NCBI GenBank assembly: GCA_965197585.1
Contig: OZ240215.1
Span: 224,001 to 288,000, forward strand
From: Dehalococcoidia bacterium
GTDB lineage: Bacteria; Chloroflexota; Dehalococcoidia; Plut-88900
Length of the DNA stretch: 64,000 bases
Reading direction: 5' to 3'
The translations under genes and the position numbers were made by a program. Below, one piece after another: positions 2,224 to 19,560 of the stretch. The notes under the pieces are model-generated. The model was not told the origin of the DNA, searched no databases, and worked only from the letters and a program-made list of their open reading frames with translations. Positions within the stretch are counted from its first letter, which is position 1, and every line of letters begins with the position of its first letter.

Positions 2224-2898
2224 TCAATCATCCAGCAGCCCGTTCTGCGCAGCCCACACCACGATCTCCTGCTTCGAGTCAACGCCCAGCTTTACCTGAA
2301 TGGTGTAGATGGCGTTTCGGATGGTGACCGCTTTGACTTCCCTCGCCGCCGCAATCGCAACGTATGACATGCCCCGGCAGAACGACACAAGTATCTCCTT
2401 CTCCCTCTGGGTCAGGTTGACCTCCTTTGATTTCGCTCCGCGCCGAATCCTGTCGAAGACCCGCCTCACCACCTCGGTAGGCAGACGCCCCTCGCCTGCA
2501 GCCGCGCTCTTCATCATGCCCAGGACCTGGTCCATTCCGGCCACCTTCTGAAGATAGCCGGCCGCACCGGCGGCCACCGCCTCTATCACGGCGTTCGCCT
2601 CCGTGGATGCGGTCAGCATGATGACCCGTGTCTTGGGCAGAGACTCCATGATCTCCCGGCACGCCTCCACGCCGTCCTTCCTGGGCATCATGACGTCCAT
2701 GACGATCAAGTCGGGCGACAGCTCGGAGGCCGCCTTCACCGCCTCCACTCCGTCCCTGGCCTGGCCCACCACCTCGAACTCCTCAGACCGCTCCAGAATC
2801 ACCTGAAGACCTTCCCGAGTGACCGCATGGTCGTCGGCGAGCAGCACCCTTATGCGACGAGACTCTGTTGACAATTTATCCCTCCTGTTGTCCGCCAC
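2224..2898 (-). CDS. NarL/LuxR-family response regulator
   Basis: Receiver motifs LADDH, MDVMMP, GYLQK; C-terminal LTQREKEIL...VTIRNAIYTIQVKLGV LuxR HTH. Confidence 0.95.
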   Translation of the reverse strand: MADNRRDKLSTESRRIRVLLADDHAVTREGLQVILERSEEFEVVGQARDGVEAVKAASELSPDLIVMDVMMPRKDGVEACREIMESLPKTRVIMLTASTEANAVIEAVAAGAAGYLQKVAGMDQVLGMMKSAAAGEGRLPTEVVRRVFDRIRRGAKSKEVNLTQREKEILVSFCRGMSYVAIAAAREVKAVTIRNAIYTIQVKLGVDSKQEIVVWAAQNGLLDD

Positions 2899-4138
2899 CG
2901 GACAATGGCATCACGCAGGTCACGCTGGCGCCCCCGGCCGGTCCCGTGGGCTCGACGATAAGGCGTCCGCTCAGACGCCCGGCGTACACCCGCATGTTTG
3001 CGAAGCCGTGGCCCCGCTCCTCGTAGTCGTCGGGAAGGCCCACCCCGTCGTCCGACACCGACAGCCTGAGCTCATCCCGTCCGAAGTCGAGATCGACCAG
3101 CACCCGGCTCGCCCCGGCATGGCGAAGGGCGTTGGCGAGGGCGTTGTGGGCTAAGGAGAACAGGAGGCTCCTGACCTCTACCGAGAGTGGCGGCTCCACA
3201 CCGTTCTGCGTCAGCTCCGCCGACACCGACGTGATGGACTTGAACGTCGCGACGTGCGAGTCCAGGGTCCAGCCCAACTCACCGCCCTCGAATATGCGGC
3301 CCATGTCAATCGGGTGTCTCAGCTGCCAGACGGCGGTCTTGGAAAGCCGTGAGGTGGCATCGAGCCGTGCGGTGAGCTCCTCGTTGGAGTCTCCGGCAAC
3401 CTGTTGGGCGGCGTCTATCCCCAGGCCGATCATGAAGGCGGTCTGGGCGGCCGTATCGTGAATGGCCTGGGAGAGCTCGATCCGCTCCCGCTGAAGCGTC
3501 CGCTCCCGCTCCACTGCGGCTCTCCACCTGCTCCGCTCGAAGTTGGAGATCAGGTTGACCGTTGCGGCCACCGCATACATGACGAAGATCCTGGCGAGCA
3601 GGGACTTCTCGTCCCTTGCCCCCATGTCGATTCCTTCCCCCACCGTGAGGCTTATCGCCAGATAGAGGACGGACACAACTGTCACACAGACCATGGTCAG
3701 CCTGAAGGAGGTGAGAACCAACGCATACCCGGCCAGCGGGGGGTAGTACAGCAGGTGCAAGAAGTAGTGGTCGAAGCCTCCCCCTATCACCGTGGCGACC
3801 GAGACCATTGTTACATCCATGGCCGCGAACGCAAGAATCCAGCGCCATGTGATGGGCCTTTTCGTCGCAAGCCGGTACTGCGTCATTCCATTGAACGCCA
3901 CTAGCAGAATGAATAGCGGCGCATACACGACGTAGCGCTCCGGCCAACCCACAGGCCGGTACGCCAGCTGCACCAAATTGAAGGCGACCACGAACCAGTG
4001 TGCCCAGACCAGTATGGTCGCTATGTATCTCAGCCCATCCGGGTCGAGCCGCATGAGCGTCGAGTTTTTAATTCGAAAGACGCCAGCGGCCTTACTGATT
4101 GGACGGAAGCCCCGGCTCTGCTGAGGTGCCTGAGACAT
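2876..4138 (-). CDS. Membrane sensor histidine kinase (NarX/DesK-like class)
   Basis: Several TM segments; H-box IHDTAAQ, N-box NALANALRHA, G1 DDGVG, G2 GHGFANM; overlaps the response regulator start. Confidence 0.92.
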   Translation of the reverse strand: MSQAPQQSRGFRPISKAAGVFRIKNSTLMRLDPDGLRYIATILVWAHWFVVAFNLVQLAYRPVGWPERYVVYAPLFILLVAFNGMTQYRLATKRPITWRWILAFAAMDVTMVSVATVIGGGFDHYFLHLLYYPPLAGYALVLTSFRLTMVCVTVVSVLYLAISLTVGEGIDMGARDEKSLLARIFVMYAVAATVNLISNFERSRWRAAVERERTLQRERIELSQAIHDTAAQTAFMIGLGIDAAQQVAGDSNEELTARLDATSRLSKTAVWQLRHPIDMGRIFEGGELGWTLDSHVATFKSITSVSAELTQNGVEPPLSVEVRSLLFSLAHNALANALRHAGASRVLVDLDFGRDELRLSVSDDGVGLPDDYEERGHGFANMRVYAGRLSGRLIVEPTGPAGGASVTCVMPLSGGGQQEG

Positions 4139-4289
4139 CTCCTCTCCTGTATGCGCGTGAAACCAAGGAATGTTTGGTGGTCACGACAGTGCGTAGGTGA
4201 CCGCTAATCTAGCCACTTTCGTTTATGTCCACAAGAGTGAAATGTTGCAGAAACACACTCTCTCAGAGCCAACACTATTGCTGTCCTAA

Positions 4290-4361
4290 GAGTGTGATTA
4301 GGCACTTACCAAACCGACGAAGAGGCTCTATTTTCCTTGCTGGTAGAAACCGGACGATAGT
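4290..4361 (+). promoter_or_regulatory. Putative operator (G/A)AGTG-N8-CACTT plus candidate sigma70-like promoter
   Basis: Inverted repeat at 4290-4307 (perfect AAGTG-N8-CACTT at 18951-18968 in copy 2); TTCCTT-N17-GATAGT, present as TTTCTT-N17-GATAGT in copy 2. Confidence 0.35.
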
Positions 4362-4364
4362 TGG

Positions 4365-4620
4365 GGTCACAGGCCGCCACGTCAGCTGTGGAAGTCGGAG
4401 GAGGTCGTAGGTTCCGCTGGCTTCGCCTGTGCCGGGGAGGCTCTCACGTGGTGCTCGACAGGCCAGTCCATCCACCTCGGACCGCGGACGGAACTGCGGC
4501 GCCCGCAGTCGCTGCGCCGCTCGCCCCTGGGGTTCGCCGCCTACGGCGAGCTAGCACAGACGTCCTCCCCGAATTTTCGGACTCGGCTAGCCGGGGGTAA
4601 GTTATGACCACCTCCCGGCG
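4365..4620 (+). ncRNA. Candidate structured cis-regulatory 5' leader RNA
   Basis: Long-range pairings GGAGGAgGTC/GACgTCCTCC, GTTCCG/CGGAAC, GCTGGCTT/AGGCCAGT, CTGTGC/GCACAG; RBS pairs with ACCTCCCGGC just inside the CDS. Confidence 0.4.
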
Positions 4621-7600
4621 TCTTGCGACGCTCCCACTGCTGCTCATCGGACTGGCGGTCATCGCCGCCCTGCTTCTCACTCCTGGGGCCCAGGCCCAGA
4701 GCCGGGACTCCGGCAGCGATTTCACCCTGGACGCCGCCAACGGCTACCCGACCGGCATCTGGTCGGACGGGACCACCATGTGGGTCGCGGACTTCGAGGA
4801 TCACAAGCTGTACGCCTACCGGATGTCGGACCGGAGCCGGGACTCGGGCAAGGACTTCACTCTGGACGCCGACAACGGCTCTCCGGTGGGCATCTGGTCG
4901 GACGGGACCACCATGTGGGCGTCGGACTTCACCGACGCCAAGCTGTACGCCTACCGGATGTCGGACCGGAGCCGGGACTCGGGCAAGGACTTCAACACGC
5001 TTTCTGCAGCCGGCAACCTCTTTCCCGAGGGCATCTGGTCGGACGGGACCACGATGTGGGTGGCGGACACCGGCAACGACACGGTGTTCGCCTACGACCT
5101 GTCGACCAGGGCCTGGGACTTCGAGAAGGACATCACGCTGGGCCCCGGCCACGGCTCTCCGATGGGCGTCTGGTCGAACGGATCCACGATGTGGGTTTCG
5201 GACTGGCGGGACACCAAGCTGTACGCCTACCGGATGTCGGACCAGACGCGGGACTCCGGCAAGGACTTCGCGCTGGACGCCGACGATGAATCTTACGAGG
5301 GCATCTGGTCGGTCGGGTCCACGATGTGGGTAGCGTCCCGCGACGACGACAGGCTCTACGCATACGACTGGAACAATCCTGCGACGGGAGCGCCGACGAT
5401 AACCGGCGCGGTCCGAGTGGGCCAGACGCTGGCGGCGGGCACCCGCTCCATCGCCGACGCGGACGGGCTGGACGCCGCCATCTTCGAATATCAATGGGTT
5501 TCGAACGGCGGGAACGCCGACACGGACATCGCGGGCGCTACCGATTCGACCTACACCATCGTCCCCGGCGACCGGGGCAGGGCCGTCAAGGTCAGGGTGT
5601 CCTTCACCGACGGCGCCGGCAACAGAGAGTCGTTGACCAGCGAGCCGACGGGTCAGGTCGGGACCCCGGGCATCTGCGACCGGACGCCTGCGGTGATGGC
5701 GGCCATCGTCGCCGGGATGACCGGCGTCGGCGACTGCTCCGAGGCTTCCGAAACGAGGCTCAGGACTTGGACCGGCTCTCAGCACTTCGGCCCCGGCGTC
5801 ACGCCCGGGCTGTACCTGCAGGGGAGGGGACTGTCGGCCCTGCAGGCCGGAGACTTCCGGGACCTGTACACGCTGCGCGCCCTGGACCTGAACCGGAACT
5901 TCCTCGAGACCGTCCCGGACGGGCTCTTCGAAGACCTACGCGCCGTGGACGAGCTCTATCTGTCGGGAAACTTCATAGACGAACTGCCGGACGGGGTGTT
6001 CGACGGTCCAGGGGAAGAACTGAGCCTGCTGGACCTGTCGGCGAACGGCCTTGAGACGCTGCCGGAGGGCGTGCTGCGAAATCTGGCCGGACTCGTCTCG
6101 CTGTCGCTCTCGGGCAACGGGCTCTCGGACCTTCCGGCGGGCCTTTTCGACGGCCTGGTCGAACTCGAGGAGCTGGACCTGTCCGCCAACTCGATAGACG
6201 AGCTGCCGGACGGGGTGTTTGACCGCAATCTCGAGCTGCGCGGCCTGGACCTGTCGATCAACGAGATCTCCGAGCTGCCGGAAGGGGTCTTCGGCGGTCT
6301 CGGCGACCTGCAGAGCCTCTCCCTCGCGGGGAACGACCTGAAGAGCCTGCCGGAGGACGTGTTCGCCGACCTCGGGAGTCTCGCTGAGCTGGACCTTTCG
6401 GGAAACAAGCTCAAGGACCTGCCTACCGGCCTCTTCGAAGGTCTGTCGGGGCTGACCGACCTCGACGCGAGCGACAATCCTGGCGCACCCTTCACGTTCA
6501 CCGCAGAGCTGGAGCGACGGGGAGACGATACGGTCGTGGTCCGATTGGCCGAGGGCGCGACGCCGTTTGATCTTCAGATCGAACTGTCGGCCCGTAACGG
6601 AGACCTGTCCGCCGAGACCGTCACCATCGCATCAGGCAGTTCCTATTCGGACGTTGTCGAGGTTCGTGCGCACGGGCATCATCCCGTCACGGTGGAGATC
6701 GACTCAGTTGCTTTCCTGTTGCCTTCCGGGGGTTCAGCGTCGGGAATCCACGCCGACCGCGGCAGCGCCATGCTTATGTGGGTCGGCAGACCATTGGTCC
6801 AAAGGGAATGGATCCAGGATGGACCCTTTGCCCTGCATCCGGAGAACGCGGACCCGAAGAGCATATGGTCGGACGGCGAGACGCTTTGGGTGGGCGACGA
6901 GAGTGCCCGGAAGGTCTTCGCCTACAAGCTGTGGGACAATCCCGGCACTGCAGTCAGCGAGTACGGGACCCGAGACCCCGGCAGGGACCTTCCGAGCCTC
7001 GGCGACGAGGACTTCTACGTCACCGGCCACGGCCTCCGATTGTACGTCGCCGAAGAGTCCCTTGACGGCGCCAGCCGGGACGTCTTCGGCTACGACCTGA
7101 CGAGTTTCACGCGTGCGGAGGACCGGGACTTCGTCTACGGGGGCTTGAACGTCGCGGGGGGCGTGTTCATAGTGCGCGGCACGGCTACGGACGGCCGTCA
7201 CATGTGGATCACGAACACCACGTCGCATGCGCACGCCTTCCGTCTGTTCGACGACCCTGAGACGCCGGAGGACGAATACGGGAAGCCGGACACGTCCCGG
7301 AAACTGACGATCCCCGGCTTGGGCCAGCTGAGCGGCCTCTTCACCGACGGGCGGACGATGTGGGGCGTCAGGTTCGCCTCGAACGACGCCTCGGTGCGGA
7401 GCGTGAAACTGTCCGACGGAACCGATGCGGGGTACGACTTTCCGCTCCACGAGGACAACGACCACGCCTACGGCATCTGGTCGAACGGGGAGACCTTCTA
7501 CGTCGTTGACGCCGACGATGACATGATCTACACCTATCATGGCGTCGGCGGCGTCGTACGGCCCTCCGTCGAAGACGCGGAGACCGCCGCCCCGCTGGTC

Positions 7601-10600
7601 GGCAACACGGGGCAGCCCGGCGACGCCGGCCATGACCTGGGCTTGGCCGGCGCAAAGAGGGCCCAGGCGTTCACCACCGGGACCAGCAGAGCCGGGTATT
7701 CGCTGGCGTCCGTCGGGATCGAGTTCGGCGACGTCTCGGACACGTCGTCCGCGCCGTCCGACCTCGAGGTGACGCTCAACGCGGACGGCGGCGGCGTCCC
7801 GGGCGACGCTCTCTGCACGCTGATCGCCCCGGCGAGCCTGTTCGAGCGGAGCGTGAACACCTTCGCCGCTCCGGCCTCGGGGACGACCTGCCCGGTTCTC
7901 GAGAAAGAGACGACCTACTTCGTGGTCGTCGAAAGGGTCCGCGTCACCGGTTCCGGCGCCATCGCTGTCAGTGGAACGGTGAGCGGCTCCGAAGACACGG
8001 GAGCCGCGGAGGGGTGGTCCATCGCGGACGGAAGCGCGACATATTCTCCTCAGGCCGCCGCTCAGGGATGGGTCTACGACGCGTTTTCCTACAAGATCGA
8101 GGTGCGCGGCTCCTTCATCAACAACCCGGCTACCGGCGAGCCGACGATCGCGGGCACGCCGCAGGTTAAGCGAACCCTCGCCGTGGCGGTCTCCGACGTG
8201 TCGGATGAGGACGGGCTGTCCAACGTTTCTTACAGCTACCAGTGGATTGCCGGAGGGTTGGACATCGCCGGAGCCACCGGCTCCAGCTACACGCTCACGT
8301 CCAACGAGCAGGGCAAGCGGATCAAGGTGCAGGTGGCGTTCGTCGACGACCGTGGCAATCATGAAACGCTGACCAGCGAGGCCACGCCATCGGTCCAGGC
8401 GCCGGATCGGCCCGGAACCGTTTCGCTCTTTCCGGCGCGGCCGAGGGTCGGGATGGTGGTCAGCGCCGCGCTGAGCGATCCCGACGGCCTCCAGGGCGGC
8501 GGTTCGGGCCCTGCGGCATCTTCGGGCGCGGTTTCGTGGAGCTGGGCCAGGTCTCCTGATGGAAACGACTGGACCCGCATCGAGGCCTACGGCGAAGGAG
8601 ACAGCTACGTTCCAACCGAAGAAGACGAAGGGATGCTGCTCAAGGCCGAGGCGTCGTACACCGACGGGCACGGCTCAGGCAAGTCCGCTCAGGCCGTTTC
8701 GTCCGCTGGCGTGGGTGCCCGCGAACCGGTTCCGGAGTTGACGGTGACGGTAATCGTCACGGGCCTGTCCCACCCCTGGGGCATCGATTTCACCCCCGAC
8801 GGGACGATGCTGTTCACCCAGCGCGCCGGCGTGCTGAACGCGAGGCTGACCGACGGCACCGTCAAGCGGGTCGACGCGGATCTCGGAGATCTGCTCGTCG
8901 ACGGGTTCGCCGGCCTGCAGGCGCTGGCCGTGGACCCGGACTTTACGACCAACCGGCGGTTCTACACGCTCCAGGGGCGCGCCGGACGCGAGATGCAGGT
9001 GATCGCCTGGACGATCGATGCGGACTACGACGAGGCCACACGCGTCGTCGATCCCCTGGTAAAGGGAATACCGATCGGGCCCGGGCCCTGGCACTCGGGA
9101 GGCCGGCTGCTATTCGGTCCGGAGGGATATCTATGGATCGCGACCGGCGACGGGCGGGTGGTAACGGGCGCGCAGGACCTGACGTCCCTGGGCGGCAAGG
9201 TCCTGCGCGTAGACCCGCGGACGGGCGCTGGGGCGCCTGGCAATCCGTTCGTATCTTCCGAACTGGTGTATGCCTACGGCTTCCGCAACCCCCAGGGCCT
9301 GGCTCTGCGCCCGGGCACGGACCAGATGTGGCTGGTGGAGCACGGCCCGAAACACGACGACGAGATCAACCTGCTGAAAGCAGGCGGCAACTTCGGCTGG
9401 GATCCGGACCCGGCCGGCGGATCGTCGGGCTCCTACCACGAGGCCGGCGTCCCCATGACCGACCTGGAGAAGTACCCATCCGCCCGCCAGGCCAGATGGT
9501 CCTCGGGATTCCCCACCCTGGCAACCAGCGGGGCCGTTTTCCTGGATGGCCCCCAATGGGGGGAGTGGGAAGGGCGACTCGCGGTGGCTACGCTCAATGC
9601 GAAGTCGCTGCGGGTCTTCGAGTTCACCGAACAGGGCGATTTCGCGGGTCAGATCGTCGTTCCGGAGCTCGATGGCAGCCACGGCCAGTTGCGGACCCCG
9701 GTGCTCGGCCCCGACGGGGCGCTGTACATCGCCACCTCCAACGCACCCGGCGTCGACAGGATTCTCAGGGTGGCCGCCAACAGTGCCGCGACGGGAGCGC
9801 CCGTCATCAGCGGCACCGTTGAAGTCGGCGAATCGCTGACGGCGGTCGTGTCCGGGATCGCCGACCCCGACGGGCTCGACGATGCTGCGTTCAGTTTCCA
9901 GTGGGCCCGCAGCCACTACGGGAGCAATTTCTCCGACATCGAAGGAGCGACGGCTTCGACCTACACCCTGGTTATGGCTGACCTTGGCAAGACTATCAAC
10001 GTGCGGGTGTCGTTCTATGACGACGGAGGCAGCCTGGAGGCGCTGACCAGTCAGAGGACGGTCAAGGTATCAGTCGTGGCATGTACGGTCGGCGAGCATG
10101 CCCCTGCGGCAACGGCGGTAGAGGTAGAAGCCGTTCCCGCTATCGTCGAGTCCACCACCGAGGAATACTTCGTGCTCTACGTGCGGCCCGCCCTGAGCTC
10201 CGAACGAGAGTTCCCGATCTCGGTGACCCTGGGCGAAGACGGCACAACAACGCTGACCGAGCAGCTGTCCCCGCTCCCCAAGGAGCATTACCGGGTGGAG
10301 AAGTTCCTCATCGCCGACCCGGCCGACATCGACAACGACTGCATCGACGACATCACCGAATTGGGGGACCCGGTGGGGATGAACCCGCTGAACCCCGCGC
10401 GGGCGGTCCCTTTTCGTGATGGCGCTGTGGCCATTCCAGACCGTGAGACATTCGAGGCGCTTTCCTACAAGGGCAGAGACGTTCCCTATCACCGTCATCT
10501 CCAGGACCTGGAGTTTGTCAAGTTCTACATTATCGGCTCGTCTGCCGAGAACATGGGTGTCTATTTCATTAACACCGAGACCCACCGAATACATCCCGAT

Positions 10601-13600
10601 TTCGGGGATGCAATCGGTCTCTGGAACGATCCGCTCTGGGGACAGGGGTACATGGGCGGCGAGATCATATACCATCCCAATGTGGTTGCTCCCGATGGTT
10701 CCCTGGGCGTCTACCGCTATCAGTTCCAGCCTATGGACGTATACTCCTTCGGCGCTGTGGCCCGTTCGTATGAGGCGCTTGCTGCCAGCATGCCGCTGCT
10801 TGATAACAACTTTGCCTACTATCCGATGCCGAGGAGAGCCCTGCCGCTCTATCACAGAGAACGGGCCCTCTACGATGATTCCCGGATCAATGTGGTGTTG
10901 AGAGAGGACATCCTGCCAGATGTTCCATTTATCCCCCTCAACGTTGGGGAGGGGTACGGTTTCCTCAGGCTCATGTCGTTGGAGGAACGCCCCGACCCGC
11001 GCGACGTGGTGATCTACGAGACTATCCCCAACGAGCTTTCCCGGGTCGTCGGCCTCATCACCACCGTACCCCAGACACCGCTTTCCCACGTCAACCTGCG
11101 GGCCGTCCAGGACGGTGTCCCCAACGCCTTCATTCGCGACGCTCTCGACGAGGGCGACATCAATGATCTCATCGGCAGATATGTCCACTACAGCATCACG
11201 GCGGACGGCTACTCCATCCGCGCCGCCACTCCCGCCGAAGTCGAGGCCTACTTCGCCGCTTCGCGCCCTCTCGGAACCCAGACGCCGGAACGGGACCTCA
11301 CAGTCACCCAGATCACCGACCTGGACGACATCGGCTTCGACGACTGGAACGCTTTCGGCGTAAAGGCGGCCAACGTGGCCGTGCTGCGGACGCTGGGTTT
11401 TCCTGACGGAACCGTCCCCCACGGGTTCGCGGTGCCCTTCTACTTCTACGACGAGTTCATGAAATACAACGGGTTCTATGACGACGTGGAGGAGATGCTG
11501 GCCGACCCGGAGTTCCAGTCGGACTATGACACCCAGGAGAAAGAACTCAAGAAACTGCGCAAGAAGATCAAGAAGGGGGAAACGCCCGACTGGATCATCA
11601 CAGCACTGGAGGAGATGCACGCCACCTACGCCGAAGGGCAATCCCTGCGCTACCGGTCGAGCACAAACAACGAGGATCTGCCGGGCTTCAGTGGCGCTGG
11701 GCTGTACGACTCAAAGACCCAGGACCCGGAGGAGACGGAGGAGGACGGTATCGACAAGTCCATCAAAGGGGTGTGGGCCAGCCTGTGGAACTTCCGGGCA
11801 TTCACTGAACGCGAGTTCCACCGCATCGACCACATAGAGACGGCCATGGGGGTCCTGGTGCATCCCAACTACTCGGACGAGCTGGCCAACGGCGTGGCCG
11901 TCAGCTTCGACCCTATCTACGGAACGGAGGGGAGCTACTACGTCAACACGCAACTCGGGGAGGACCTGGTCACCAATCCCGACGCACACTCGGTGCCCGA
12001 GGAAATCCTGTTGGACCTGTCCGGTTCATACACCACCCTGGTGACCTCCAACCAGGTGGCAGGAGGACAACTCCTCATGAGCGATGCTCAAATTGGCCAG
12101 TTGAGCCGGCATCTCCAGGACATCCATGACCATTTCGAGGGTCTGTACAACCCCGGACCCGACGAACCCTTTGCAATGGAGATCGAGTTCAAGATCACCA
12201 GCGACGACGTCCTGTCCATCAAACAGGCCCGCCCCTGGGTGTTTGACGCAACTAACGCCGGACCACCGCAGGAAGAGCCGATATGGTCCGCGACCCTTAC
12301 GGTGGGGACCGCAGAGAACTTCGCCGGCTACACGACATTCGTGGCCTCGCCGGAAACCAACACCCTGGGCGCACTCTCGTCGGACACCATCACTCTGGAT
12401 GGTGTCAGCTACACCGTGAAGGCCCTGGCGGTTCGGGACGGCGAGTTGATCCTCTCCGTGACGCCAAAGCTGGCTGCAGGTTTTGTGCTGGTTGCGGGGA
12501 CATCTGAATTCGCCTCCACCGATGCATCTACCCTGGAAACGGACTCTCTCTTGCAGTTCTACTGGAATAACCCAGGACTGGACTGGTCCGAGGAGGAAGA
12601 GGTCGCTGTCAGACTAACTGAGCCGAACGATAACGACCCGGCCACGGGAGCGCCCACGATCACTGGAACTTCGCAGGTGGACCAGACGTTGACGACGGAC
12701 ACCTGGGCCATTACCGACGAAGACGGGCTGACCAACGTTTCCTACAGCTACCAGTGGATCAGGAGCGACGGCAACACCGACACCGACATAGCGGGAGAGA
12801 CGGACTCGACCTACACGCTGGTCCGCGCCGACGAGGGCAAGACCATCAAGGTGCGGGTGAGCTTCACCGACGACGCCGACAATGCCGAGACGCTGACCAG
12901 CGCGGCGACGGGGGTGGTTGAGGCCAAGCCCAACACCCTGGCCACGGGAACGCCCACGATCACTGGAACGGCCCAGGTGGGAGAGACGCTGACGGTCCTC
13001 ACCAACGGGATCGCCGACGAAGACGGGCTGACCAATGTTCTCTACAGCTACCAGTGGATCAGGAGCGACGGCAACGCCGACACCGACATAGCGGGAGAGA
13101 CGGACTCGACCTATACGCTGGTCCGCGCCGACGAGGGCAAGACCATCAAGGTGGGGGTGAACTTCACCGACGACGCCGATAACGCCGAGACGCTGACCAG
13201 CGCAGCGACGGGGGTGGTTGAGGCCAAGCCCAACACCCCGGCGACGGGAGCGCCCACGATCACTGGAACTTCGCAGGTGGACCAGACGTTGACGGCGGAC
13301 ACCTGGGCCATTGCCGACGAAGACGGGCTGACCAACGTTTCCTACAGCTACCAGTGGATCAGGAGCGACGGCAACACCGACACCGACATAGCGGGAGAGA
13401 CGGACTCGACCTACACGCTGGTCCGCGCCGACGAGGGCAAGACCATCAAGGTAGGGGTGAGCTTCACCGACGACGCCGACAATGCCGAGACGCTGACCAG
13501 CGCGGCGACGGGGGTGGTTGAGGCCAAGCCCAACACCCTGGCCACGGGAACGCCCACGATCACTGGAACGGCCCAGGTGGGAGAGACGCTGACGGTCCTC

Positions 13601-16600
13601 ACCAACGGGATCGCCGACGAAGACGGGCTGACCAATGTTCTCTACAGCTACCAGTGGATCAGGAGCGACGGCAACGCCGACACCGACATAGCGGGAGAGA
13701 CGGACTCGACCTATACGCTGGTCCGCGCCGACGAGGGCAAGACCATCAAGGTGGGGGTGAACTTCACCGACGACGCCGATAACGCCGAGACGCTGATTAG
13801 CGCGGCGACGGGGGTGGCGTCCCGCTCCGACAAGCCGGTGGCGGATGGGTCGACCCCGGTGTGGTCGGCGGACATGTCTGTGGTGGATCTCGGTAACGGC
13901 TCCATTGGCGCCGTCAGCGCCAATCTCTTTTCGAACCAAGAAGGCAGTGCGGGTCTTCAGGCAAAGTGGCTGTGGTACTACAGCCCGGGGCGTTATATAC
14001 GCCTGTCATTTACGGATGTTGTACCCAGTGGGGAGGAACTGACGCTAGAGATCGGAGATGTGGCCCTGACGTTGCAGGCGGGAGATTCGGCCTTCACCTG
14101 GGAGGAGGTCGACGTCGATTGGGAGGACGGTCAGGTCATTCCAGTGCGCATCGTCCCGACGTCGGAGACAGCGGTGTCCCAGCCCAACACCCCGGCGACA
14201 GGAGGGCCGACCATCAGTGGAACGGCCCAGGTGGACCAGACGCTGTCCGTGGACACGTCTAACATCGCCGACCAGGACGGGCTGAACAACGTTTCCTACA
14301 GCTACCAGTGGATCAGGAGCGACGGCAACACCGACACCGACATAGCGGAAGAGACGGACCCGACCTACATCCTAGTCCCCGCCGACGAGGGCAAGACCAT
14401 CAAGGTGCGGGTGAGCTTCACCGACGAAGCAGACCACGAGGAGACGCTGACCGGCAATCCGACCAGGCCAGTGACTGCGGCACCCAACCGTCACGCGACG
14501 GGCAAGCCCACCATTGGCGGGACGCCCCAGGTGGACCAGACGCTGACCGCGGACACGTCTAACATCGCCGACCATGACGGGCTGAACAACGTCTCTTACA
14601 GCTACCAGTGGATCGCCGGAGGTACGGACATTGATGGGGCCACCGGGTCCACCTACACCCTGACTGCCAGTGAGCAGGGGCAGACCATCCGGGTTCGTGT
14701 GACGTTCACCGACGACCGGGACAACGCCGAGACCCTGACCAGCGTGGCGACTGTGGCCGTTGTTGCAGCGCCCAACCGCGAGGCCACGGGCCACCCCGCC
14801 ATCGGCGGGACGCCCCAGGTGGACCAGACGCTGACCGCGGACACGTCTAACATCGCCGACCAGGACGGGCTGAACAACGTCTCTTACAGCTACCAATGGA
14901 TGGCCGGAGGTTCGGACATTGATGGGGCCACCGGGTCCACCTACACCCTGACTGCCAGCGAGCAGGGGCAGACCGTACAGGTGAAGGTGACGTTCACTGA
15001 CGACCGGAACAACGCCGAGACCCTGACCAGCGTGGCGACTGTGGCCGTTGCTGTAGCGCCCAACCGAGAGGCCACGGGCCAGCCCACCATCGACGGGACG
15101 CCCCAGGTGGGAGAGACACTAACGGCGGATACGGCAAACATCGCCGACCAGGACGGGCTGAATAACGTGTCCTACAGCTACCAGTGGATCGCTGGAGGTA
15201 CGGACATCGTCGGGGCCACCGGCTCGAGCTACGAGCTTACGTCCAGCGAGCAGGGGCAGCCCATCCAGGTCCGGGTGACTTTCACCGACGATGCCGATAA
15301 CGAGGAGACGCTTATAAGCGCTGCAACGGAGGTGGTGCAGCAGGGTGGTAACGCCTGGTCCGCCACTATCACCGTGGGGACAAGAGATGGATACACAGGG
15401 TATTCGTACTGGGGCGATCCCGGCCTGGGGTCCCTGTCGGCCACCGAGGCCGAATGGGACGGCAAGACCCACTACGTCAGGTACATCTTTCTCAAGGATG
15501 GAGAGCTCTGGCTTGGCCTGAACAACGAGATGTTCTCCACCGGCTTCGTGCTGTCGGTTGGGGACGAGGAGTTCGGTTCGGCGGACGCCTTGGTGGATAG
15601 GAGTGGCGGTGCGTCCTACAGATTCCGGTGGGATGACCGGGGATTGGGCTGGTCGGATGGGGAGGAAGTGTCGGTGAACCTCCTGCAGTCCGACCAGAAT
15701 ACCCCGGCCCTGGGCGCGCCGACCATCAGCGGAACGGCACAGGTGGACGAGACACTGACTGCGGATACCTCTGGCGTTGAGGACGCGGACGGGTTGACCA
15801 ACGTGTCGTACAGCTACCAGTGGATGGCTGACGGCGTGGACATTCAGGACGCGACCAGTTCCACCCACAAGCTCGTATTCCCCGACCGGGGCAAGAGCAT
15901 CAAGGTGAAGGTGTCCTTCACCGACGACCGGGACAACGCCGATACCCTTACCAGCGCGGCGACTGTGGTCGTTGTTGCAGCGCCCAACCGCGAGGCCATG
16001 GGATATCCCACCATCACCGGAATGCCCCAGGTGGGACAGACCCTGACGGCGGACACTTCGCCAATCGCCGACCGCGACGGGCTGAACAACGTCTCTTACA
16101 GCTACCAGTGGATCGGCGGAGGGTCGGACATCGATGAGGCCACAGGCTCTAACTACGAGCTTGCGTCCAGCGAGCAGGGACAGACCATCCAGGTTCGGGT
16201 GACTTTCACCGACGACCGGGACAACGCCGAGACCCTTACCAGCGCGGCAACTGTGGCCGTTGTTGCAGCGCCCGACCGTCAGGCCACGGGCCTGCCCACC
16301 ATCAGCGGTACGCTCCAGGTAGGAGAGACCCTAATGGCGGGCACGTCGGGTATTACCGACGCCGACGGGCTCACCAACGTTTCCTTCGAGTACCAGTGGA
16401 TCAGGGGCGACAGCGGTGCCGGAGCGGACATAGACGGAGCGACGGACGCCACCTACACTCTGACCGCCGGCGACCAGGGGAAGACCATCAAGGTGAAGGT
16501 GTCCTTCACCGACGACGCAGACCACGAGGAGAAGCTGACCAGCGCGGCGACGGGAGTGGTTGCGGCCAAGCCCAACACTCCGGCCATGGGAGCGCCCACC

Positions 16601-18724
16601 ATTGATGGAACGGCCCAGGTGGGAGAGACGCTTACGGTCCTCACCAACGGCATCACCGACGAAGACGGGCTGACCAACCCAACGTACAGCTACCAGTGGA
16701 TTCGGAACGACGGAACCAATGACGCGCACATAGGAGGTAAGACAGGTTCGACCTACACCCTGAACGATGACGACGTGGGGAAGAGCATCAAGATGCGGGT
16801 GAGCTTCACCGACGACGCCGACCACGAGGAGACCCTGACCAGCGCGGCGACGGGGGTGGTTACAGCCAAGCCCAACTCTCCAGCCACGGGAGCGCCCACC
16901 ATTGATGGCACGGCCCAGGTGGGAGAGACGTTCACTGCCCTCACCAACGGCATCACCGACGAAGACGGGCTGACCAACCCAACGTACAGCTACCAGTGGA
17001 TCAGGAGCGACAACGGCACCGACGCCGATATAGCAGGGCAGACAGACTCCACCTACACGCTAGTGGCCGCCGACCAAGGCAAGACCATCATGGTGCGGGT
17101 GACCTTCACCGACGACGCCGATAACGAGGAGACCCTGACCAGCGCGGCAACGGAGGTGGTGCAGCAGGGTAGCAACGCTTGGTCCGCCACGATGACCGTG
17201 GGGACAAGAGATGGGTTCACCGGGTATTCGTACTGGAGCAATCCACACCTGGGGTCCCTGTCGGCCACCGAGGTCGAATGGGACGGCAAGACCCACTATG
17301 TCAGGTTCCTTTTTCTCAAGGACGGCGAGCTCCGGCTCGGCCTGAACGAAGAGATGTTCTCCACCGGCTTCGTGCTGTCGGTTGGGGACGAGGAGTTCGG
17401 CTCGGCGGACGCCATGGTGGATCATGGCGGTGCGTCCTACAGATTCCGGTGGGATGACCGGGGATTGGGCTGGTCGGATGGGAACGAGGTGTCGCTAAAC
17501 CTCGTGCTGTCCGACCAGAATACCCCGGCCCTGGGCGCGCCGACCATCAGCGGTACGGACCAAGTGGATGAGACGCTGACTGCGGACATCTCCGGTGTTG
17601 AGGACGCGGACGGGCTGGACAACGTGTTGTACAGCTACCAGTGGATGGCTGACGGCGTGGATATTCAGGACGCGACCAGTTCCACCTACAAGCCAGTATT
17701 CCCCGACCAGGGCAAGACCATCAAGGTGCGGGTGACCTTCACCGACGACCGGGACAACACCGAGACCCTTGGCAGCGAGGCGACGGGTGCAGTAGCGGCG
17801 GCGCCCAACCGTGATGCCACGGGAGCTCCCACCATCACAGAAATGCCCCAAGTGGGACAGACGCTGACGGCGGACACGTCTAACATCGCCGACCAGGACG
17901 GGCTGACCAACGTCTCTTACAGCTACCAGTGGATCGCCGGAGGGTCGGACATCGATGGGGCCACCAGCTTCAGCTACGAGCTCACGTCTAGCGAACAGGG
18001 TCGGACCATCCAGGTCCGGGTGACCTTCACCGACGACCGGGACAACGCCGAGACCCTTACCAGCGAGGCGACTGTGGCCGTTGTTGCAGCGCCCAACCGC
18101 GAGGCCACCGGCCTGCCGGCCATCAGCGGCACGCCGCAGGTGGGGGAGACCCTCACCGCATCAACCTCGTCCATAGCCGACGGGGACGGGCTGAACAACG
18201 TGTCCTACCGTTACCAGTGGATCGCCGGAGGTACGGACATCGATGGGGCCACCGGCTCCAGTTACGAGCTCACGTCCAGCGAGCAGGGGCAGACCATCCA
18301 GGTCCGTGTGACTTTCACAGACGACCGCGACAATGAGGAAACTCTGACCAGCGCGGCTACTGTCGAAGTGGCGGCGGCGCCAGTTCCGCTCACCGTCCGA
18401 CTGAAGGTCGCCGCCCCGACCTCCCACGACGGCTCGTCTGAGTTTACCTTCGAAATCGAGTTCAGCGAGGAGTTCGGCCTGAGCTACGTGACCCTGAAGA
18501 ACCATGCCTTCAATGCAGCCGGCGGATCCGTGGAGAGGGCGCAGAGAACGAACAAGCCCAGCAACATCTCCTGGAGCATCATGGTAAAGCCCACCTCCAC
18601 CGGGGACGTGACGATCGAACTCCGGGCAACCACGGACTGCGGAGCTACCGGAGCCATCTGCACCGGCGACGACAGGAAACTGTCCAACTCGCTGAGCTTC
18701 ACCGTCTTTGGGCCGGGGGGCTAG
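4604..18724 (+). CDS. Giant (4706 aa) secreted mosaic surface protein: GIWSDG propeller repeats, LRRs, PQQ-dependent sugar dehydrogenase domain, PPDK/PEP-synthase N-terminal ATP-grasp domain, ~19 Ig-like repeats, Cys-containing C-terminal domain
   Basis: Uninterrupted ORF with Sec signal ending AQA-Q. LPEGVFxGL LRRs at ~5810-6490. GLSHPWGIDF/HSGGRLLFGPEG/GFRNPQG/EHGP..DEIN at ~8735-9775. GVKAAN/RSSTNNEDLPGFSGAGLYDS/VWASLWN/EIEFK..QARP at ~11340-12245. Repeats NxPATGxPTIxG...YSYQW. Confidence 0.93.
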   Translation: MTTSRRLATLPLLLIGLAVIAALLLTPGAQAQSRDSGSDFTLDAANGYPTGIWSDGTTMWVADFEDHKLYAYRMSDRSRDSGKDFTLDADNGSPVGIWSDGTTMWASDFTDAKLYAYRMSDRSRDSGKDFNTLSAAGNLFPEGIWSDGTTMWVADTGNDTVFAYDLSTRAWDFEKDITLGPGHGSPMGVWSNGSTMWVSDWRDTKLYAYRMSDQTRDSGKDFALDADDESYEGIWSVGSTMWVASRDDDRLYAYDWNNPATGAPTITGAVRVGQTLAAGTRSIADADGLDAAIFEYQWVSNGGNADTDIAGATDSTYTIVPGDRGRAVKVRVSFTDGAGNRESLTSEPTGQVGTPGICDRTPAVMAAIVAGMTGVGDCSEASETRLRTWTGSQHFGPGVTPGLYLQGRGLSALQAGDFRDLYTLRALDLNRNFLETVPDGLFEDLRAVDELYLSGNFIDELPDGVFDGPGEELSLLDLSANGLETLPEGVLRNLAGLVSLSLSGNGLSDLPAGLFDGLVELEELDLSANSIDELPDGVFDRNLELRGLDLSINEISELPEGVFGGLGDLQSLSLAGNDLKSLPEDVFADLGSLAELDLSGNKLKDLPTGLFEGLSGLTDLDASDNPGAPFTFTAELERRGDDTVVVRLAEGATPFDLQIELSARNGDLSAETVTIASGSSYSDVVEVRAHGHHPVTVEIDSVAFLLPSGGSASGIHADRGSAMLMWVGRPLVQREWIQDGPFALHPENADPKSIWSDGETLWVGDESARKVFAYKLWDNPGTAVSEYGTRDPGRDLPSLGDEDFYVTGHGLRLYVAEESLDGASRDVFGYDLTSFTRAEDRDFVYGGLNVAGGVFIVRGTATDGRHMWITNTTSHAHAFRLFDDPETPEDEYGKPDTSRKLTIPGLGQLSGLFTDGRTMWGVRFASNDASVRSVKLSDGTDAGYDFPLHEDNDHAYGIWSNGETFYVVDADDDMIYTYHGVGGVVRPSVEDAETAAPLVGNTGQPGDAGHDLGLAGAKRAQAFTTGTSRAGYSLASVGIEFGDVSDTSSAPSDLEVTLNADGGGVPGDALCTLIAPASLFERSVNTFAAPASGTTCPVLEKETTYFVVVERVRVTGSGAIAVSGTVSGSEDTGAAEGWSIADGSATYSPQAAAQGWVYDAFSYKIEVRGSFINNPATGEPTIAGTPQVKRTLAVAVSDVSDEDGLSNVSYSYQWIAGGLDIAGATGSSYTLTSNEQGKRIKVQVAFVDDRGNHETLTSEATPSVQAPDRPGTVSLFPARPRVGMVVSAALSDPDGLQGGGSGPAASSGAVSWSWARSPDGNDWTRIEAYGEGDSYVPTEEDEGMLLKAEASYTDGHGSGKSAQAVSSAGVGAREPVPELTVTVIVTGLSHPWGIDFTPDGTMLFTQRAGVLNARLTDGTVKRVDADLGDLLVDGFAGLQALAVDPDFTTNRRFYTLQGRAGREMQVIAWTIDADYDEATRVVDPLVKGIPIGPGPWHSGGRLLFGPEGYLWIATGDGRVVTGAQDLTSLGGKVLRVDPRTGAGAPGNPFVSSELVYAYGFRNPQGLALRPGTDQMWLVEHGPKHDDEINLLKAGGNFGWDPDPAGGSSGSYHEAGVPMTDLEKYPSARQARWSSGFPTLATSGAVFLDGPQWGEWEGRLAVATLNAKSLRVFEFTEQGDFAGQIVVPELDGSHGQLRTPVLGPDGALYIATSNAPGVDRILRVAANSAATGAPVISGTVEVGESLTAVVSGIADPDGLDDAAFSFQWARSHYGSNFSDIEGATASTYTLVMADLGKTINVRVSFYDDGGSLEALTSQRTVKVSVVACTVGEHAPAATAVEVEAVPAIVESTTEEYFVLYVRPALSSEREFPISVTLGEDGTTTLTEQLSPLPKEHYRVEKFLIADPADIDNDCIDDITELGDPVGMNPLNPARAVPFRDGAVAIPDRETFEALSYKGRDVPYHRHLQDLEFVKFYIIGSSAENMGVYFINTETHRIHPDFGDAIGLWNDPLWGQGYMGGEIIYHPNVVAPDGSLGVYRYQFQPMDVYSFGAVARSYEALAASMPLLDNNFAYYPMPRRALPLYHRERALYDDSRINVVLREDILPDVPFIPLNVGEGYGFLRLMSLEERPDPRDVVIYETIPNELSRVVGLITTVPQTPLSHVNLRAVQDGVPNAFIRDALDEGDINDLIGRYVHYSITADGYSIRAATPAEVEAYFAASRPLGTQTPERDLTVTQITDLDDIGFDDWNAFGVKAANVAVLRTLGFPDGTVPHGFAVPFYFYDEFMKYNGFYDDVEEMLADPEFQSDYDTQEKELKKLRKKIKKGETPDWIITALEEMHATYAEGQSLRYRSSTNNEDLPGFSGAGLYDSKTQDPEETEEDGIDKSIKGVWASLWNFRAFTEREFHRIDHIETAMGVLVHPNYSDELANGVAVSFDPIYGTEGSYYVNTQLGEDLVTNPDAHSVPEEILLDLSGSYTTLVTSNQVAGGQLLMSDAQIGQLSRHLQDIHDHFEGLYNPGPDEPFAMEIEFKITSDDVLSIKQARPWVFDATNAGPPQEEPIWSATLTVGTAENFAGYTTFVASPETNTLGALSSDTITLDGVSYTVKALAVRDGELILSVTPKLAAGFVLVAGTSEFASTDASTLETDSLLQFYWNNPGLDWSEEEEVAVRLTEPNDNDPATGAPTITGTSQVDQTLTTDTWAITDEDGLTNVSYSYQWIRSDGNTDTDIAGETDSTYTLVRADEGKTIKVRVSFTDDADNAETLTSAATGVVEAKPNTLATGTPTITGTAQVGETLTVLTNGIADEDGLTNVLYSYQWIRSDGNADTDIAGETDSTYTLVRADEGKTIKVGVNFTDDADNAETLTSAATGVVEAKPNTPATGAPTITGTSQVDQTLTADTWAIADEDGLTNVSYSYQWIRSDGNTDTDIAGETDSTYTLVRADEGKTIKVGVSFTDDADNAETLTSAATGVVEAKPNTLATGTPTITGTAQVGETLTVLTNGIADEDGLTNVLYSYQWIRSDGNADTDIAGETDSTYTLVRADEGKTIKVGVNFTDDADNAETLISAATGVASRSDKPVADGSTPVWSADMSVVDLGNGSIGAVSANLFSNQEGSAGLQAKWLWYYSPGRYIRLSFTDVVPSGEELTLEIGDVALTLQAGDSAFTWEEVDVDWEDGQVIPVRIVPTSETAVSQPNTPATGGPTISGTAQVDQTLSVDTSNIADQDGLNNVSYSYQWIRSDGNTDTDIAEETDPTYILVPADEGKTIKVRVSFTDEADHEETLTGNPTRPVTAAPNRHATGKPTIGGTPQVDQTLTADTSNIADHDGLNNVSYSYQWIAGGTDIDGATGSTYTLTASEQGQTIRVRVTFTDDRDNAETLTSVATVAVVAAPNREATGHPAIGGTPQVDQTLTADTSNIADQDGLNNVSYSYQWMAGGSDIDGATGSTYTLTASEQGQTVQVKVTFTDDRNNAETLTSVATVAVAVAPNREATGQPTIDGTPQVGETLTADTANIADQDGLNNVSYSYQWIAGGTDIVGATGSSYELTSSEQGQPIQVRVTFTDDADNEETLISAATEVVQQGGNAWSATITVGTRDGYTGYSYWGDPGLGSLSATEAEWDGKTHYVRYIFLKDGELWLGLNNEMFSTGFVLSVGDEEFGSADALVDRSGGASYRFRWDDRGLGWSDGEEVSVNLLQSDQNTPALGAPTISGTAQVDETLTADTSGVEDADGLTNVSYSYQWMADGVDIQDATSSTHKLVFPDRGKSIKVKVSFTDDRDNADTLTSAATVVVVAAPNREAMGYPTITGMPQVGQTLTADTSPIADRDGLNNVSYSYQWIGGGSDIDEATGSNYELASSEQGQTIQVRVTFTDDRDNAETLTSAATVAVVAAPDRQATGLPTISGTLQVGETLMAGTSGITDADGLTNVSFEYQWIRGDSGAGADIDGATDATYTLTAGDQGKTIKVKVSFTDDADHEEKLTSAATGVVAAKPNTPAMGAPTIDGTAQVGETLTVLTNGITDEDGLTNPTYSYQWIRNDGTNDAHIGGKTGSTYTLNDDDVGKSIKMRVSFTDDADHEETLTSAATGVVTAKPNSPATGAPTIDGTAQVGETFTALTNGITDEDGLTNPTYSYQWIRSDNGTDADIAGQTDSTYTLVAADQGKTIMVRVTFTDDADNEETLTSAATEVVQQGSNAWSATMTVGTRDGFTGYSYWSNPHLGSLSATEVEWDGKTHYVRFLFLKDGELRLGLNEEMFSTGFVLSVGDEEFGSADAMVDHGGASYRFRWDDRGLGWSDGNEVSLNLVLSDQNTPALGAPTISGTDQVDETLTADISGVEDADGLDNVLYSYQWMADGVDIQDATSSTYKPVFPDQGKTIKVRVTFTDDRDNTETLGSEATGAVAAAPNRDATGAPTITEMPQVGQTLTADTSNIADQDGLTNVSYSYQWIAGGSDIDGATSFSYELTSSEQGRTIQVRVTFTDDRDNAETLTSEATVAVVAAPNREATGLPAISGTPQVGETLTASTSSIADGDGLNNVSYRYQWIAGGTDIDGATGSSYELTSSEQGQTIQVRVTFTDDRDNEETLTSAATVEVAAAPVPLTVRLKVAAPTSHDGSSEFTFEIEFSEEFGLSYVTLKNHAFNAAGGSVERAQRTNKPSNISWSIMVKPTSTGDVTIELRATTDCGATGAICTGDDRKLSNSLSFTVFGPGG
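4701..5370 (+). repeat. Five ~45-aa GIWSDGTTMWV repeats (135-bp period), beta-propeller-like
   Basis: gccgggactc recurs at 4701, 4836, 4971; first units near-identical at DNA level. Confidence 0.9.
12641..13815 (+). repeat. Near-perfect 600-bp tandem duplication (two Ig-like modules, ABAB)
   Basis: Lines 12961-13190 and 13561-13790 essentially identical; 12661 vs 13261 differ by a few SNPs. Confidence 0.95.
15280..17950 (+). repeat. Dispersed ~850-bp intragenic duplication (15280-16110 vs 17100-17935)
   Basis: WSATxTVGTRDG...GKTHYVR...SDQNTPALGAPT block occurs twice, ~1820 bp apart. Confidence 0.9.
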
Positions 18725-18875
18725 GAGCGGCGCTATAGAGGGTTCCGGGCCGAAAAGATAGACCGGGCAGTGCATAGCGCTTGTTTTTCCGGTCAACAAG
18801 AAAAGCCCGCGTATGCGGATGGCCGGAGGCCAGCGGCCTCTCCCGGCCCGGATGCGTACCGGTGGCGTGTGCCTG

Positions 18876-19366
18876 ACTTTCGTCGATACTAGCAAGAGCA
18901 AAACGTTGCAGAAACACTCTCTCTAAAAGCTAACGACATTGCTGCCGAGAAAGTGTGATTAGGCACTTACCAAATCGACGAAGAGGCTCTATTTTCTTGC
19001 TGGTAGAAACCGGACGATAGTTGGAGTCACAGGCCACCATATCGGCTGTGGAAGTCGGAGGAGGTCGTAGGTTCCGCTGGCTTCGCCTGTGCCGGGGAGG
19101 CTCTCACATGGTGCTCGACAGGCCAGTCCATCCACCTCCGACCGCGGACGGAACTGCGGCCCCCACAGTCGCTGCACCGCTCGCCCCTGGGTTCGCCGCC
19201 TACGGCGAGCCGGCACAGACGTCCTCCCGGAATTTTCGGACTCGGCTAGCCGGAGGTAAGTCATGACCACCTCCCGGCGTCTTGCGCCGCTCCCCACTGC
19301 TGCTCATTGGGCTGGCGGCCCTCTGCGCCGCCCTGGTGCTCATCCCCTGGGTTGTCCAGGCCCAGA
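18876..19366 (+). repeat. Copy 2 of promoter/leader/signal-peptide cassette
   Basis: Homologous to 4215-4700; similarity ends at the VQA-Q signal cleavage site. Confidence 0.95.
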
Positions 19367-19560
19367 ACCAGGAGGTGACCGCCACCGCGGCCGCCACCGG
19401 CGCCAACCCCCCGGCCCAGCCCACGAACCTCCAGGCCTCGGCGGTACACGATTCGGTCACCCTCACCTGGACGGCCTCGACGGACCAGACGGTCACCCAC
19501 TACGCCATCCTCCGCCGCAACCCGGACACCGACGCATCGCAGGTCTTCCACGTCATCCTC
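19263..19560 (+). pseudogene. Frameshifted, truncated secreted fibronectin type III protein (shares cassette with the giant gene)
   Basis: MTTSRRLA start; extra C at 19292-19295 relative to copy 1; then PPAQPTNLQASAVHDSVTLTWTASTDQTVTHYAILRR (Fn3), breaking off at ~19560. Confidence 0.8.

Follow-up and report, generated by a model that had tools for sequence, protein, structure and literature searches.

A modular 5' head with a leader reading frame and a variable poly-C tract ahead of giant exported proteins in sponge-associated Dehalococcoidia

The described systems that come closest to this locus are familiar ones. The Mycoplasma vlp genes form one of several families of variable surface lipoproteins, the poly-C of Bordetella fim is a simple-sequence contingency locus, and in leaders of the mgtL/mgtP type ribosome pausing at prolines can decide downstream expression. 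It is thought that sponge symbionts rely on eukaryote-like surface proteins in their dealings with the host, and we know of no work on the control of such surface-protein genes in uncultured Chloroflexota. To our knowledge, simple-sequence contingency loci have been described neither for Chloroflexota nor for beneficial animal symbionts.

The first comparison is with the Mycoplasma vpma, vsp, vsa and vlp genes. These are multigene families of surface proteins in which a shared 5' UTR and signal peptide lead into mature parts that diverge, with recombination at the shared 5' region and with a homopolymer tract in the regulatory region, all of which has a counterpart here. The vpma genes are clustered, with a single promoter and an adjacent tyrosine recombinase (Xer1), and inversion takes place at sites -1 to -72 (PMC2268961). 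Here, in contrast, the copies are dispersed on the chromosome, each with its own upstream module, no adjacent recombinase is seen among the ORFs scanned from 1 to 24 kb, the products are giant Sec substrates and not lipoproteins, and the tract lies within an upstream ORF (uORF) instead of a promoter spacer. This does not match a recombinase-driven locus of the Vpma/Vsp/Vsa type, the genes being neither clustered nor under a single promoter and the ORFs scanned including no adjacent recombinase.

The leader ORFs of mgtL-mgtA and mgtP (PMC5021804, PMC11552253) share with our case proline codons, a long leader and a two-component-regulated promoter. The present leader has no sequence similarity to them; its prolines come from a homopolymer of hypervariable length that reaches 51 C, its uORF ends on the main start codon, alternative hairpins lack support, and giant surface-protein genes lie downstream. 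The poly-G/C contingency loci of Neisseria, Helicobacter and Campylobacter (PMC5084427, PMC2823697) likewise have a long tract at surface-protein genes with frame-shifting length differences. In our case the tract sits in an upstream ORF and not in the main coding sequence or a promoter spacer, stops in all frames mostly buffer the shift, length variation is known between assemblies only, and the organism is an animal symbiont of Chloroflexota. Finally, uORF-ppe2 of Mycobacterium tuberculosis (PMC11260477), a uORF of the mgtA region (PMC8092293) and a survey of uRBS (PMC13285730) provide translated uORFs that end at or near the downstream start and control access to its ribosome-binding site; ours shows no sequence relationship to them, recurs ahead of many paralogous genes and contains a homopolymer. 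By sequence the leader element belongs to none of these systems, and it differs from each in a defining feature; our literature searches turned up no description of it.

The window analysed here (the whole stretch of 64,000 nucleotides, positions 224001-288000 of a single-contig genome of 3.43 Mb, G000) contains two direct repeats, 4215-4700 and 18876-19366, which a first-pass annotation had placed about 14.66 kb apart. This is borne out: MAFFT, a repeat finder and BLASTN concur on a spacing of 14,659-14,661 nt, and BLASTN aligns copies 1 and 2 at 89.4% identity over 483 nt (E 4.6e-179). The 121 nt at the start (4215-4335 and 18876-18996) are 81% identical, the following 200 nt (4332-4531 and 18992-19191) 95%, and the 111 nt after those (4525-4635 and 19184-19294) 93%. 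The same annotation had the homology run through the leader and start codon and stop exactly at the signal-peptidase site. The likeness does span both start codons (ATG 4604 and ATG 19263), fades within the signal peptide and ends at AQA-Q versus VQA-Q (about 4696 and 19362). The leader, which had been put at about 240 nt, has to be revised, the conserved block 5' of the main ATG measuring 389 nt. The repeats are a modular 5' head common to giant Sec-exported multidomain proteins of sponge-associated Dehalococcoidia. The parts of the copy 1 locus are as follows.

2224..2898, minus strand: response regulator with receiver and GerE/LuxR helix-turn-helix (Pfam Response_reg 1.5e-27, GerE 4e-8), reading away from the giant gene
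2876..4138, minus strand: histidine kinase with HisKA_3 and HATPase_c (Pfam), its start about 310 nt upstream of the copy 1 uORF
4215..4335, plus strand: upstream module, candidate promoter/operator
4336..4433, plus strand: variable leader module, between upstream module and core
4434..4440, plus strand: Shine-Dalgarno-like GGGGAGG, spaced 7 nt from the start of the uORF
4448..4600, plus strand: uORF, GTG start, 50 codons, TAA at 4598-4600, ending 3 nt short of the main ATG
4564..4570, plus strand: C-rich tract CCTCCCC, at the site of the poly-C/poly-Pro tract of other copies
4588..4607, plus strand: stop-codon cluster around the main ribosome-binding site, one stop per frame (TAG 4588-4590, Shine-Dalgarno GGGGG 4593-4597, TAA 4598-4600, main ATG 4604-4606, TGA 4605-4607)
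4604..4696, plus strand: signal peptide MTTSRRLATLPLLLIGLAVIAALLLTPGAQA followed by Q (from the translation), the putative cleavage site being placed by the n/h/c-region pattern
4604..18724, plus strand: giant secreted protein of 4706 aa (ORF, Pfam, internal repeats)

The 4706-aa protein has N-terminal repeats of about 45 aa, LRR, a glucose/sorbosone-dehydrogenase propeller, a PPDK_N-like domain and many Ig-like repeats. The upstream module of copy 1 carries a conserved GTGTGATTAGGCACTTACCAAA box and an inverted repeat, CACACTCT...AGAGTGTG, and is also found at three further places in the genome (c3, C and D below); lying beside a divergent kinase and LuxR-type regulator, it is presumably a regulated promoter. 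A promoter and terminator scan of 3900-4800, sigma-70-like promoters included, returned no site. The variable leader module exists in one version in copies 1 and 2 and in another in C, D and their relatives; metagenome contigs carry the latter from 4330 on, where they switch.

Searches of this genome by BLASTN and with an nhmmer profile yield six copies of the leader core of about 200 nt (E 1e-45 to 1e-51), four of them with a full head. These cores are dispersed, at 228, 243, 318, 472, 2597 and 2605 kb, every full copy being accompanied by an upstream module of its own. Two further places hold other parts of the head.

Copy 1 (A), 228 kb: full head, 4706-aa protein
Copy 2 (B), 243 kb: full head, Fn3 remnant
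Copy D, 318 kb, minus strand: full head, 2824-aa protein
Copy c3, 468.8 kb: upstream module only, LRR and Cache genes
Copy C, 472 kb: full head, 4167-aa protein with the same kinds of domain in another order
Copy E, 782.7 kb: ribosome-binding site and signal peptide only, 1729-aa sulfatase protein
Copy F, 2.597 Mb: core only, 1445-aa cadherin protein
Copy H, 2.605 Mb: core only, 289-aa ORF

Beyond this genome, a fixed IUPAC core motif matched 34 stretches in 23 records of a collection of 185,579 species, all of them Dehalococcoidia MAGs. A sequence-only covariance model found the core in 4 of 12 genomes of the family and 5 of 151 of the class, only a fraction of the candidates being scored; within the genus it was found in 0-1 of 8 genomes, where each genome offered more than 1000 candidates and no more than 150 (or 22) of them were scored. 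We do not trust this absence within the genus, since the scan of the genome collection had turned up a near relative (L082) whose leader is 98% identical to that of copy D. Two patterns searched against JGI metagenome contigs gave no match to the core, and the public runs with the best matches include four sponge metatranscriptomes.

What follows the head varies. The 29 heads with a family-type signal peptide and an adjacent leader fall into 9 clusters of mature N-termini, one of which is the frameshifted reading of copy 2 and belongs with its Fn3-type relative L081, so that about 8 are real: the copy 1 repeat type (10 heads), the D type (5), the C type (4), an 'AEAQTVSRILV' type (3), a 'QTPANQSATGKP' type and a sulfatase-protein type (2 each), the Fn3 type and one more. 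By inspection, the shared sequence breaks at the AxA-Q motif in every cargo type. Pfam architectures after the head differ between copies, and LRR, Fn3, cadherin, Ig-like, propeller and sulfatase domains occur in proteins of the family. This is thus a gene family in which 5' UTR and signal peptide are conserved and the mature parts diverge, and the idea of a standard regulatory and export head joined to differing cargoes, already put forward in the first-pass annotation, is supported: there are more than two copies, the N-terminal domain behind them is not constant, and the breakpoint coincides with the cleavage site.

Inside the leader are a uORF and a variable poly-C tract which are new here, the earlier reading having missed them. 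The core opens with GGGAGG, and the uORF start codon follows 7 nt further on; GGGAGG or GGAGG stands at equal spacing from this start in nearly all copies. The uORF has the general form MALDRPVHAPETADG..APAVAAP..G.AA.GGLAQMFT-Pro(n)-tail, its frame reading M-A-L-D-R-P-V-H-A-P-E-T-A-D-G-T-T-A-P-A-V-A-A-P-x-A-x-G-x-A-A-x-G-G-L-A-Q-M-F-T, then prolines, then the tail, and diverged copies with weak nucleotide matches still keep LAFDRPI..ET..AQMFTPPPP. A short ORF with its own ribosome-binding site is therefore conserved among homologous leaders. At the 34 newly found loci its start is ATG (17), TTG (7) or GTG (1), that is a canonical codon in 25; the other 9 have ATA (6), ATC, GGG or AGG at this position. 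It should be kept in mind that the motif which selected these loci spans uORF codons 3-14, so that these codons are not independent evidence, and that the leader copies share descent, so that counts among them are not independent either.

For codons 2-27 in 12 copies, pN/pS is 0.57, the two remaining forward frames giving 1.12 and 1.33; for codons 15-27, which lie outside the search motif, it is 0.67 versus 1.25 and 0.92 in 37 unique sequences (from the 41 of 57 kept at an ungapped identity of at least 60%), both tests being only partly free of the selection bias at codons 3-14. Mismatches by codon position number 71/71/110, which favours the uORF frame. The pN/pS values are, however, no more than moderately below 1, one antisense frame is also low (0.62), and third positions are themselves unusually conserved, so that a constraint at the nucleotide level is at work as well. 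There are P<->R changes in the middle of the peptide, and 2 of the first 15 copies have frame-breaking indels within the conserved part; in copy 1 itself an additional G at 4529, absent from other strains, puts the C-terminal half out of the family frame. The coding signal, as read from these comparisons, is suggestive, not conclusive.

Indeed, one can ask whether the leader core acts as nucleic acid only, either as a structured RNA or as a site to which a regulator, an sRNA or an antitermination factor binds, with the open frame being incidental in GC-rich DNA. The very high conservation of third codon positions across families, the 9 of 34 loci without a canonical start, a pN/pS of just 0.57-0.67 and a palindrome in the leader, GACGGC-N4-GCCGTC, whose stem is kept while its loop varies, all agree with such a role. 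The searches for a structure do not: Rfam gives no match at gathering score (the best at E<=10 is noise, sR38, E 1.6), and RNAalifold finds almost no consensus structure or covariation, with -8.0 kcal/mol and 2 compensated pairs for 15 sequences, -7.6 kcal/mol and 1 pair for 14, and 0 kcal/mol and no pair for 56. A known structured RNA or riboswitch was rejected on these grounds, as was an antitermination leader of the ops/RfaH type, the ops core motif GGCGGTAG being present in 0 of 57 leaders. Moreover, a purely nucleic-acid role leaves unexplained the interchange of ATG, TTG and GTG at one position, the Shine-Dalgarno spacing, the peptide motif kept in diverged copies and the all-frame stop cluster described next. 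We regard it as possible, if rather doubtful.

Among the 26 distinct leaders that have an adjacent main ORF, 22 have a uORF whose end is no more than 15 nt away from the main ATG. Its stop is the TGA of an overlapping ATGA (+4) in 11 leaders, a TAA just before the ATG (-3) in 4, a stop at -13 to -15 in 7, and lies elsewhere in 4. The conserved arrangement GGCTAGCC-GGRGG-TAAGTC-ATGA gives one stop per frame (TAG, TAA and the TGA of ATGA), each no further than about 20 nt from the main ATG. Stops in all frames within -24..+4 are found in 11 of the 26 leaders; of the genome's 2058 long ORFs, 98 (4.8%) show the same.

The proline run of the uORF corresponds to a C tract between ..CAGATGTTCA and GATTTT, which ranges from 4 to 51 nt; the longest tracts measure 51, 25, 25, 20, 19, 16, 15, 15, 14, 13, 12 and 11 nt, and those of copies 1 and 2 are merely CCTCCCC and CCTCCC. 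The two longest C/G runs of the 3.43-Mb genome (13 and 12) both lie at this position of a leader. Five D-type orthologues together display all three classes of uORF termination.

Locus D: C13, uORF reads through
Locus L066: C16, uORF reads through
Locus L082: C12, TAA at -3
Locus L078: C51, TAA at -3
Locus L064: C19, ATGA overlap

At D-type loci TGG replaces the TAG, so that one frame crosses the main start. Although the leaders of D and L082 are 98% identical, they have C13 and C12, a single-base difference of the sort that an assembly error in long-read homopolymers might also produce. Within clusters of small proteins at 90% identity, members vary in the number of prolines (2-8) and in which of three tails they carry. 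Compared between assemblies, then, tract length and frame vary among close relatives and orthologous loci, and we have here a long homopolymer able to shift the frame, with length polymorphism among close relatives. The notion that the tract acts as an anti-Shine-Dalgarno was rejected: 5 of the 11 leaders folded do show it paired with the main Shine-Dalgarno site at minimum energy, but its mean pairing probability (0.89, n=20) is no better than that of shuffled leaders (0.90).

Putting these features together, we lean, on balance, towards a uORF that would be translated and would couple or gate the translation of the giant gene, perhaps also its transcription via Rho, with the C tract as a modulator. 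The head would consist of the upstream module beside the divergent HisKA_3 kinase and LuxR-type regulator, as the presumed regulated promoter; of a leader of about 270 nt whose core holds the Shine-Dalgarno site and the short ORF; and of the main ribosome-binding site, the ATG and the signal peptide up to AxA-Q. Ribosomes would translate the uORF, pause at the proline run and terminate on or beside the main start, which would make translation of the giant gene dependent on that of the uORF, and might in addition shield transcription from Rho acting on C-rich RNA; the genome encodes both Rho and EF-P. Slippage of the poly-C would shift the point where the uORF ends, and at D-type loci without the TAG the one frame that crosses the main start could make a stochastic switch. 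RNA-library contigs cover the core (4393-4585 in X11, 4414-4583 in X12), which is no proof of transcription; depth dips in the leader in the DNA run too.

A bolder version of this proposal, which we put forward tentatively and consider somewhat improbable as a whole, is that of a new contingency switch in an animal symbiont, in which the length of a hypermutable poly-C/poly-proline tract in a translated leader ORF would set where ribosomes stop relative to the giant-gene start and would tune or switch synthesis by coupling, EF-P pausing or Rho shielding, the head serving at the same time as a recombination handle that shuffles cargo between two-component-regulated sites. If the tract does switch expression, contingency loci would extend to a new phylum, to the lifestyle of a beneficial animal symbiont and to a place, within a uORF, that is new for them. 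In any case, the leader is a candidate for a compact control element common to the largest genes of these genomes.

It might be argued instead that the product of the uORF is a free-standing small protein working together with the giant proteins, for instance in export or anchoring. Gene callers do predict it: among 5.8 billion proteins, 84 unnamed small proteins (or clusters of them) of 38-87 aa carry the uORF sequence, and the N-terminal 40 residues are conserved; four long cluster members (626, 293, 443 and 557 aa) are unrelated and were left out. The peptide is nevertheless Ala/Pro-rich and lacks a hydrophobic segment, even near-identical copies differ freely in the frame of its C-terminus, its proline run goes from 2 to 17 residues and no Pfam family matched any of the 84, and we consider this explanation highly improbable.

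The kinase/LuxR-type regulator pair at the C locus is paralogous to that of copy 1 (66% and 93% identical), and half a regulator gene adjoins the D head. Orthologues of the copy 1 kinase (HK_A) can be told apart, being at least 85.6% identical to it and at most 63% to the paralogue, and in other genomes they stand before four types of cargo, the A type (L070), the D type (L082), the C type (L077) and a further one, the 'QITNQDATG' type (L086); kinases of the C locus type (HK_C, 86-91%) similarly stand before C-type cargo, copy 1 (A) cargo (L083, L055) and other cargo (L060). Copies 1 and 2 share 94% identity in their leaders; the figure is 72-73% for copy 1 against its cargo orthologues and 67% for copy 2 against L081. 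For the signal-peptide parts, every one of these comparisons gives 79-82% identity. Leaders more alike within the genome than with their orthologues (94% versus 67-73%), together with varied cargo behind orthologous kinases, point to gene conversion and to cargo exchange. These comparisons thus support recombination at the heads, with gene conversion and with cargo moved between expression sites, and the head appears to have been swapped between genes. Heads that are alike would be substrates for homologous recombination, by which leaders could be homogenised within a genome and cargo moved between loci, and exchange of cargo behind orthologous sensor loci would provide a mechanism for rapid turnover of the surface-protein repertoire.

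The same excess of identity between copies 1 and 2 may be read more simply as ordinary paralogy, that is a recent intragenomic event (duplication or gene conversion of a 5' end) in which the leader is a plain 5' UTR with a signal peptide, and the fact that copy 2 is non-functional (see below) fits in with this. Against it stand the core, in which several families of the class retain 70-80% nucleotide identity ahead of unrelated cargoes, and the ordered series of Shine-Dalgarno site, start codon, conserved N-terminal peptide, tract and stop cluster, so that we think it unlikely. The parts of copy 2 are the following.

18876..19262, plus strand: upstream module and leader
19108..19266, plus strand: uORF, ATG start, 52 codons, its TGA overlapping the main ATG as ATGA
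19263..19557, plus strand: remnant of an Fn3 surface-protein gene, with start codon, signal peptide and about half an Fn3 domain

Copy 2 had been taken to continue into an Fn3 domain; it does not hold a whole one, and a role as a working alternative cargo is not supported. An additional C after codon 10, which could be a homopolymer assembly error, turns the frame of ATG 19263 into a nonsense ORF of 128 aa; the signal peptide lies in a frame that does not open before TTG 19282 and forms an ORF of 164 aa ending at 19776. The product matches no Pfam family at E<=0.01, and its likeness to Fn3 repeats is confined to residues 46-93 (48 residues). The nearest relative, L081, which has the same head and a main ORF of at least 1902 aa, is 80.4% identical to copy 2 over 469 nt; this likeness ends at 19557, residue 92 of the copy 2 ORF, and the G+C content drops beyond. 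Judged from its sequence, copy 2 is a truncated remnant of such an Fn3 orthologue, a dead end cut off beside an integrative conjugative element.

This bears on the suggestion of a programmed surface variation in which copies 1 and 2 recombine with each other and the 14-kb gene is thereby deleted or amplified. The repeats are direct, with 480 nt at 89-95% identity, and heads do seem to recombine on evolutionary time scales; the product of a deletion would nonetheless be a head before the 164-aa remnant and not an alternative surface protein, and the ORFs examined from 1 to 24 kb include no recombinase gene. We find such a switch very unlikely.

In the neighbourhood of copy 2, no att repeat of the tRNA-Ser was found within 18700-24000, and the promoter and terminator scan of 18500-20200 gave 3 terminator-like sites versus 1.8 expected. 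The roughly 20 kb after copy 2 encode an RHH/PIN pair, a primase-like protein, TraG/VirB4-like and coupling proteins, a relaxase and an integrase, which jointly make up an integrative conjugative element; the integrase (38221-39369), the only one found and part of this element, abuts the tRNA-Ser.

The 2824-aa protein that follows the full head (the repeated 5' unit of upstream module, leader and signal peptide) at genome 318 kb and its orthologues have main ORFs that open with a duplicated start region (L009, genome 318138-318327; L064, L066, L078 and L082). The N-terminus reads MTxxRRL..PLLASLLRT..RRLTSSRFSPSGKSLPSSPLVL and is followed by a second, intact signal-peptide-like segment; this duplication is kept in five genomes, and either start may be the one used. 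In the window, the copies of the head at 4215-4700 (copy 1) and 18876-19366 (copy 2) each carry a single-base homopolymer difference, namely an extra G at 4529 in the uORF of copy 1, which is absent from contigs of other strains, and, in copy 2, one additional C within the signal-peptide sequence (19294 region). Each of the two could be a true frameshift or an error of assembly.

The upstream module also occurs without the rest of the head, in a second copy in the L008:2785-5609 region (genome 468785-471609) that is 86% identical to window 4100-4330. It is followed by genes for an LRR protein (421 aa) and a Cache-domain protein (366 aa), which are flanked by the kinase on one side and by the 4167-aa gene's full head on the other. 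Two more HisKA_3 kinase/regulator pairs (genome 194848-196709 and 341068-342763), 45-53% identical to the window's pair, are immediately upstream of other large secreted proteins:

196842-205910, 3022-aa CARDB/subtilase protein
345768-350009, 1413-aa Fn3/PPC protein

Beside copy 2, an integrative conjugative element spans window ~19560-39618 and includes, together with coupling protein and relaxase genes:

21657-22120, RHH/PIN pair
22646-24028, minus strand, primase-like gene in a stretch of 75% G+C
30677-32875, TraG/VirB4-like ATPase
38221-39369, integrase, adjoining the tRNA
39529-39618, tRNA-Ser

Its left end has no defined position, because no att repeat of the tRNA-Ser was found at window 18700-24000.

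Among other repeats, ORF 498-1895 (465 aa, no Pfam family) contains tandem repeats of 54-nt period (window 586-897), and a 55-nt direct repeat, 89% identical, lies at window 58874-58928 and 63349-63403 (spacing 4475 nt). Four poly-G runs of 9-10 nt (genome 1713513, 2166407, 2920365 and 3344464), preceded by ...GAAGTATGAGC or, in one of the four, by ATATATGAGC, all lie inside a repeated GTGCTGAG... element, which is an unrelated family of repeats that has a homopolymer of its own.
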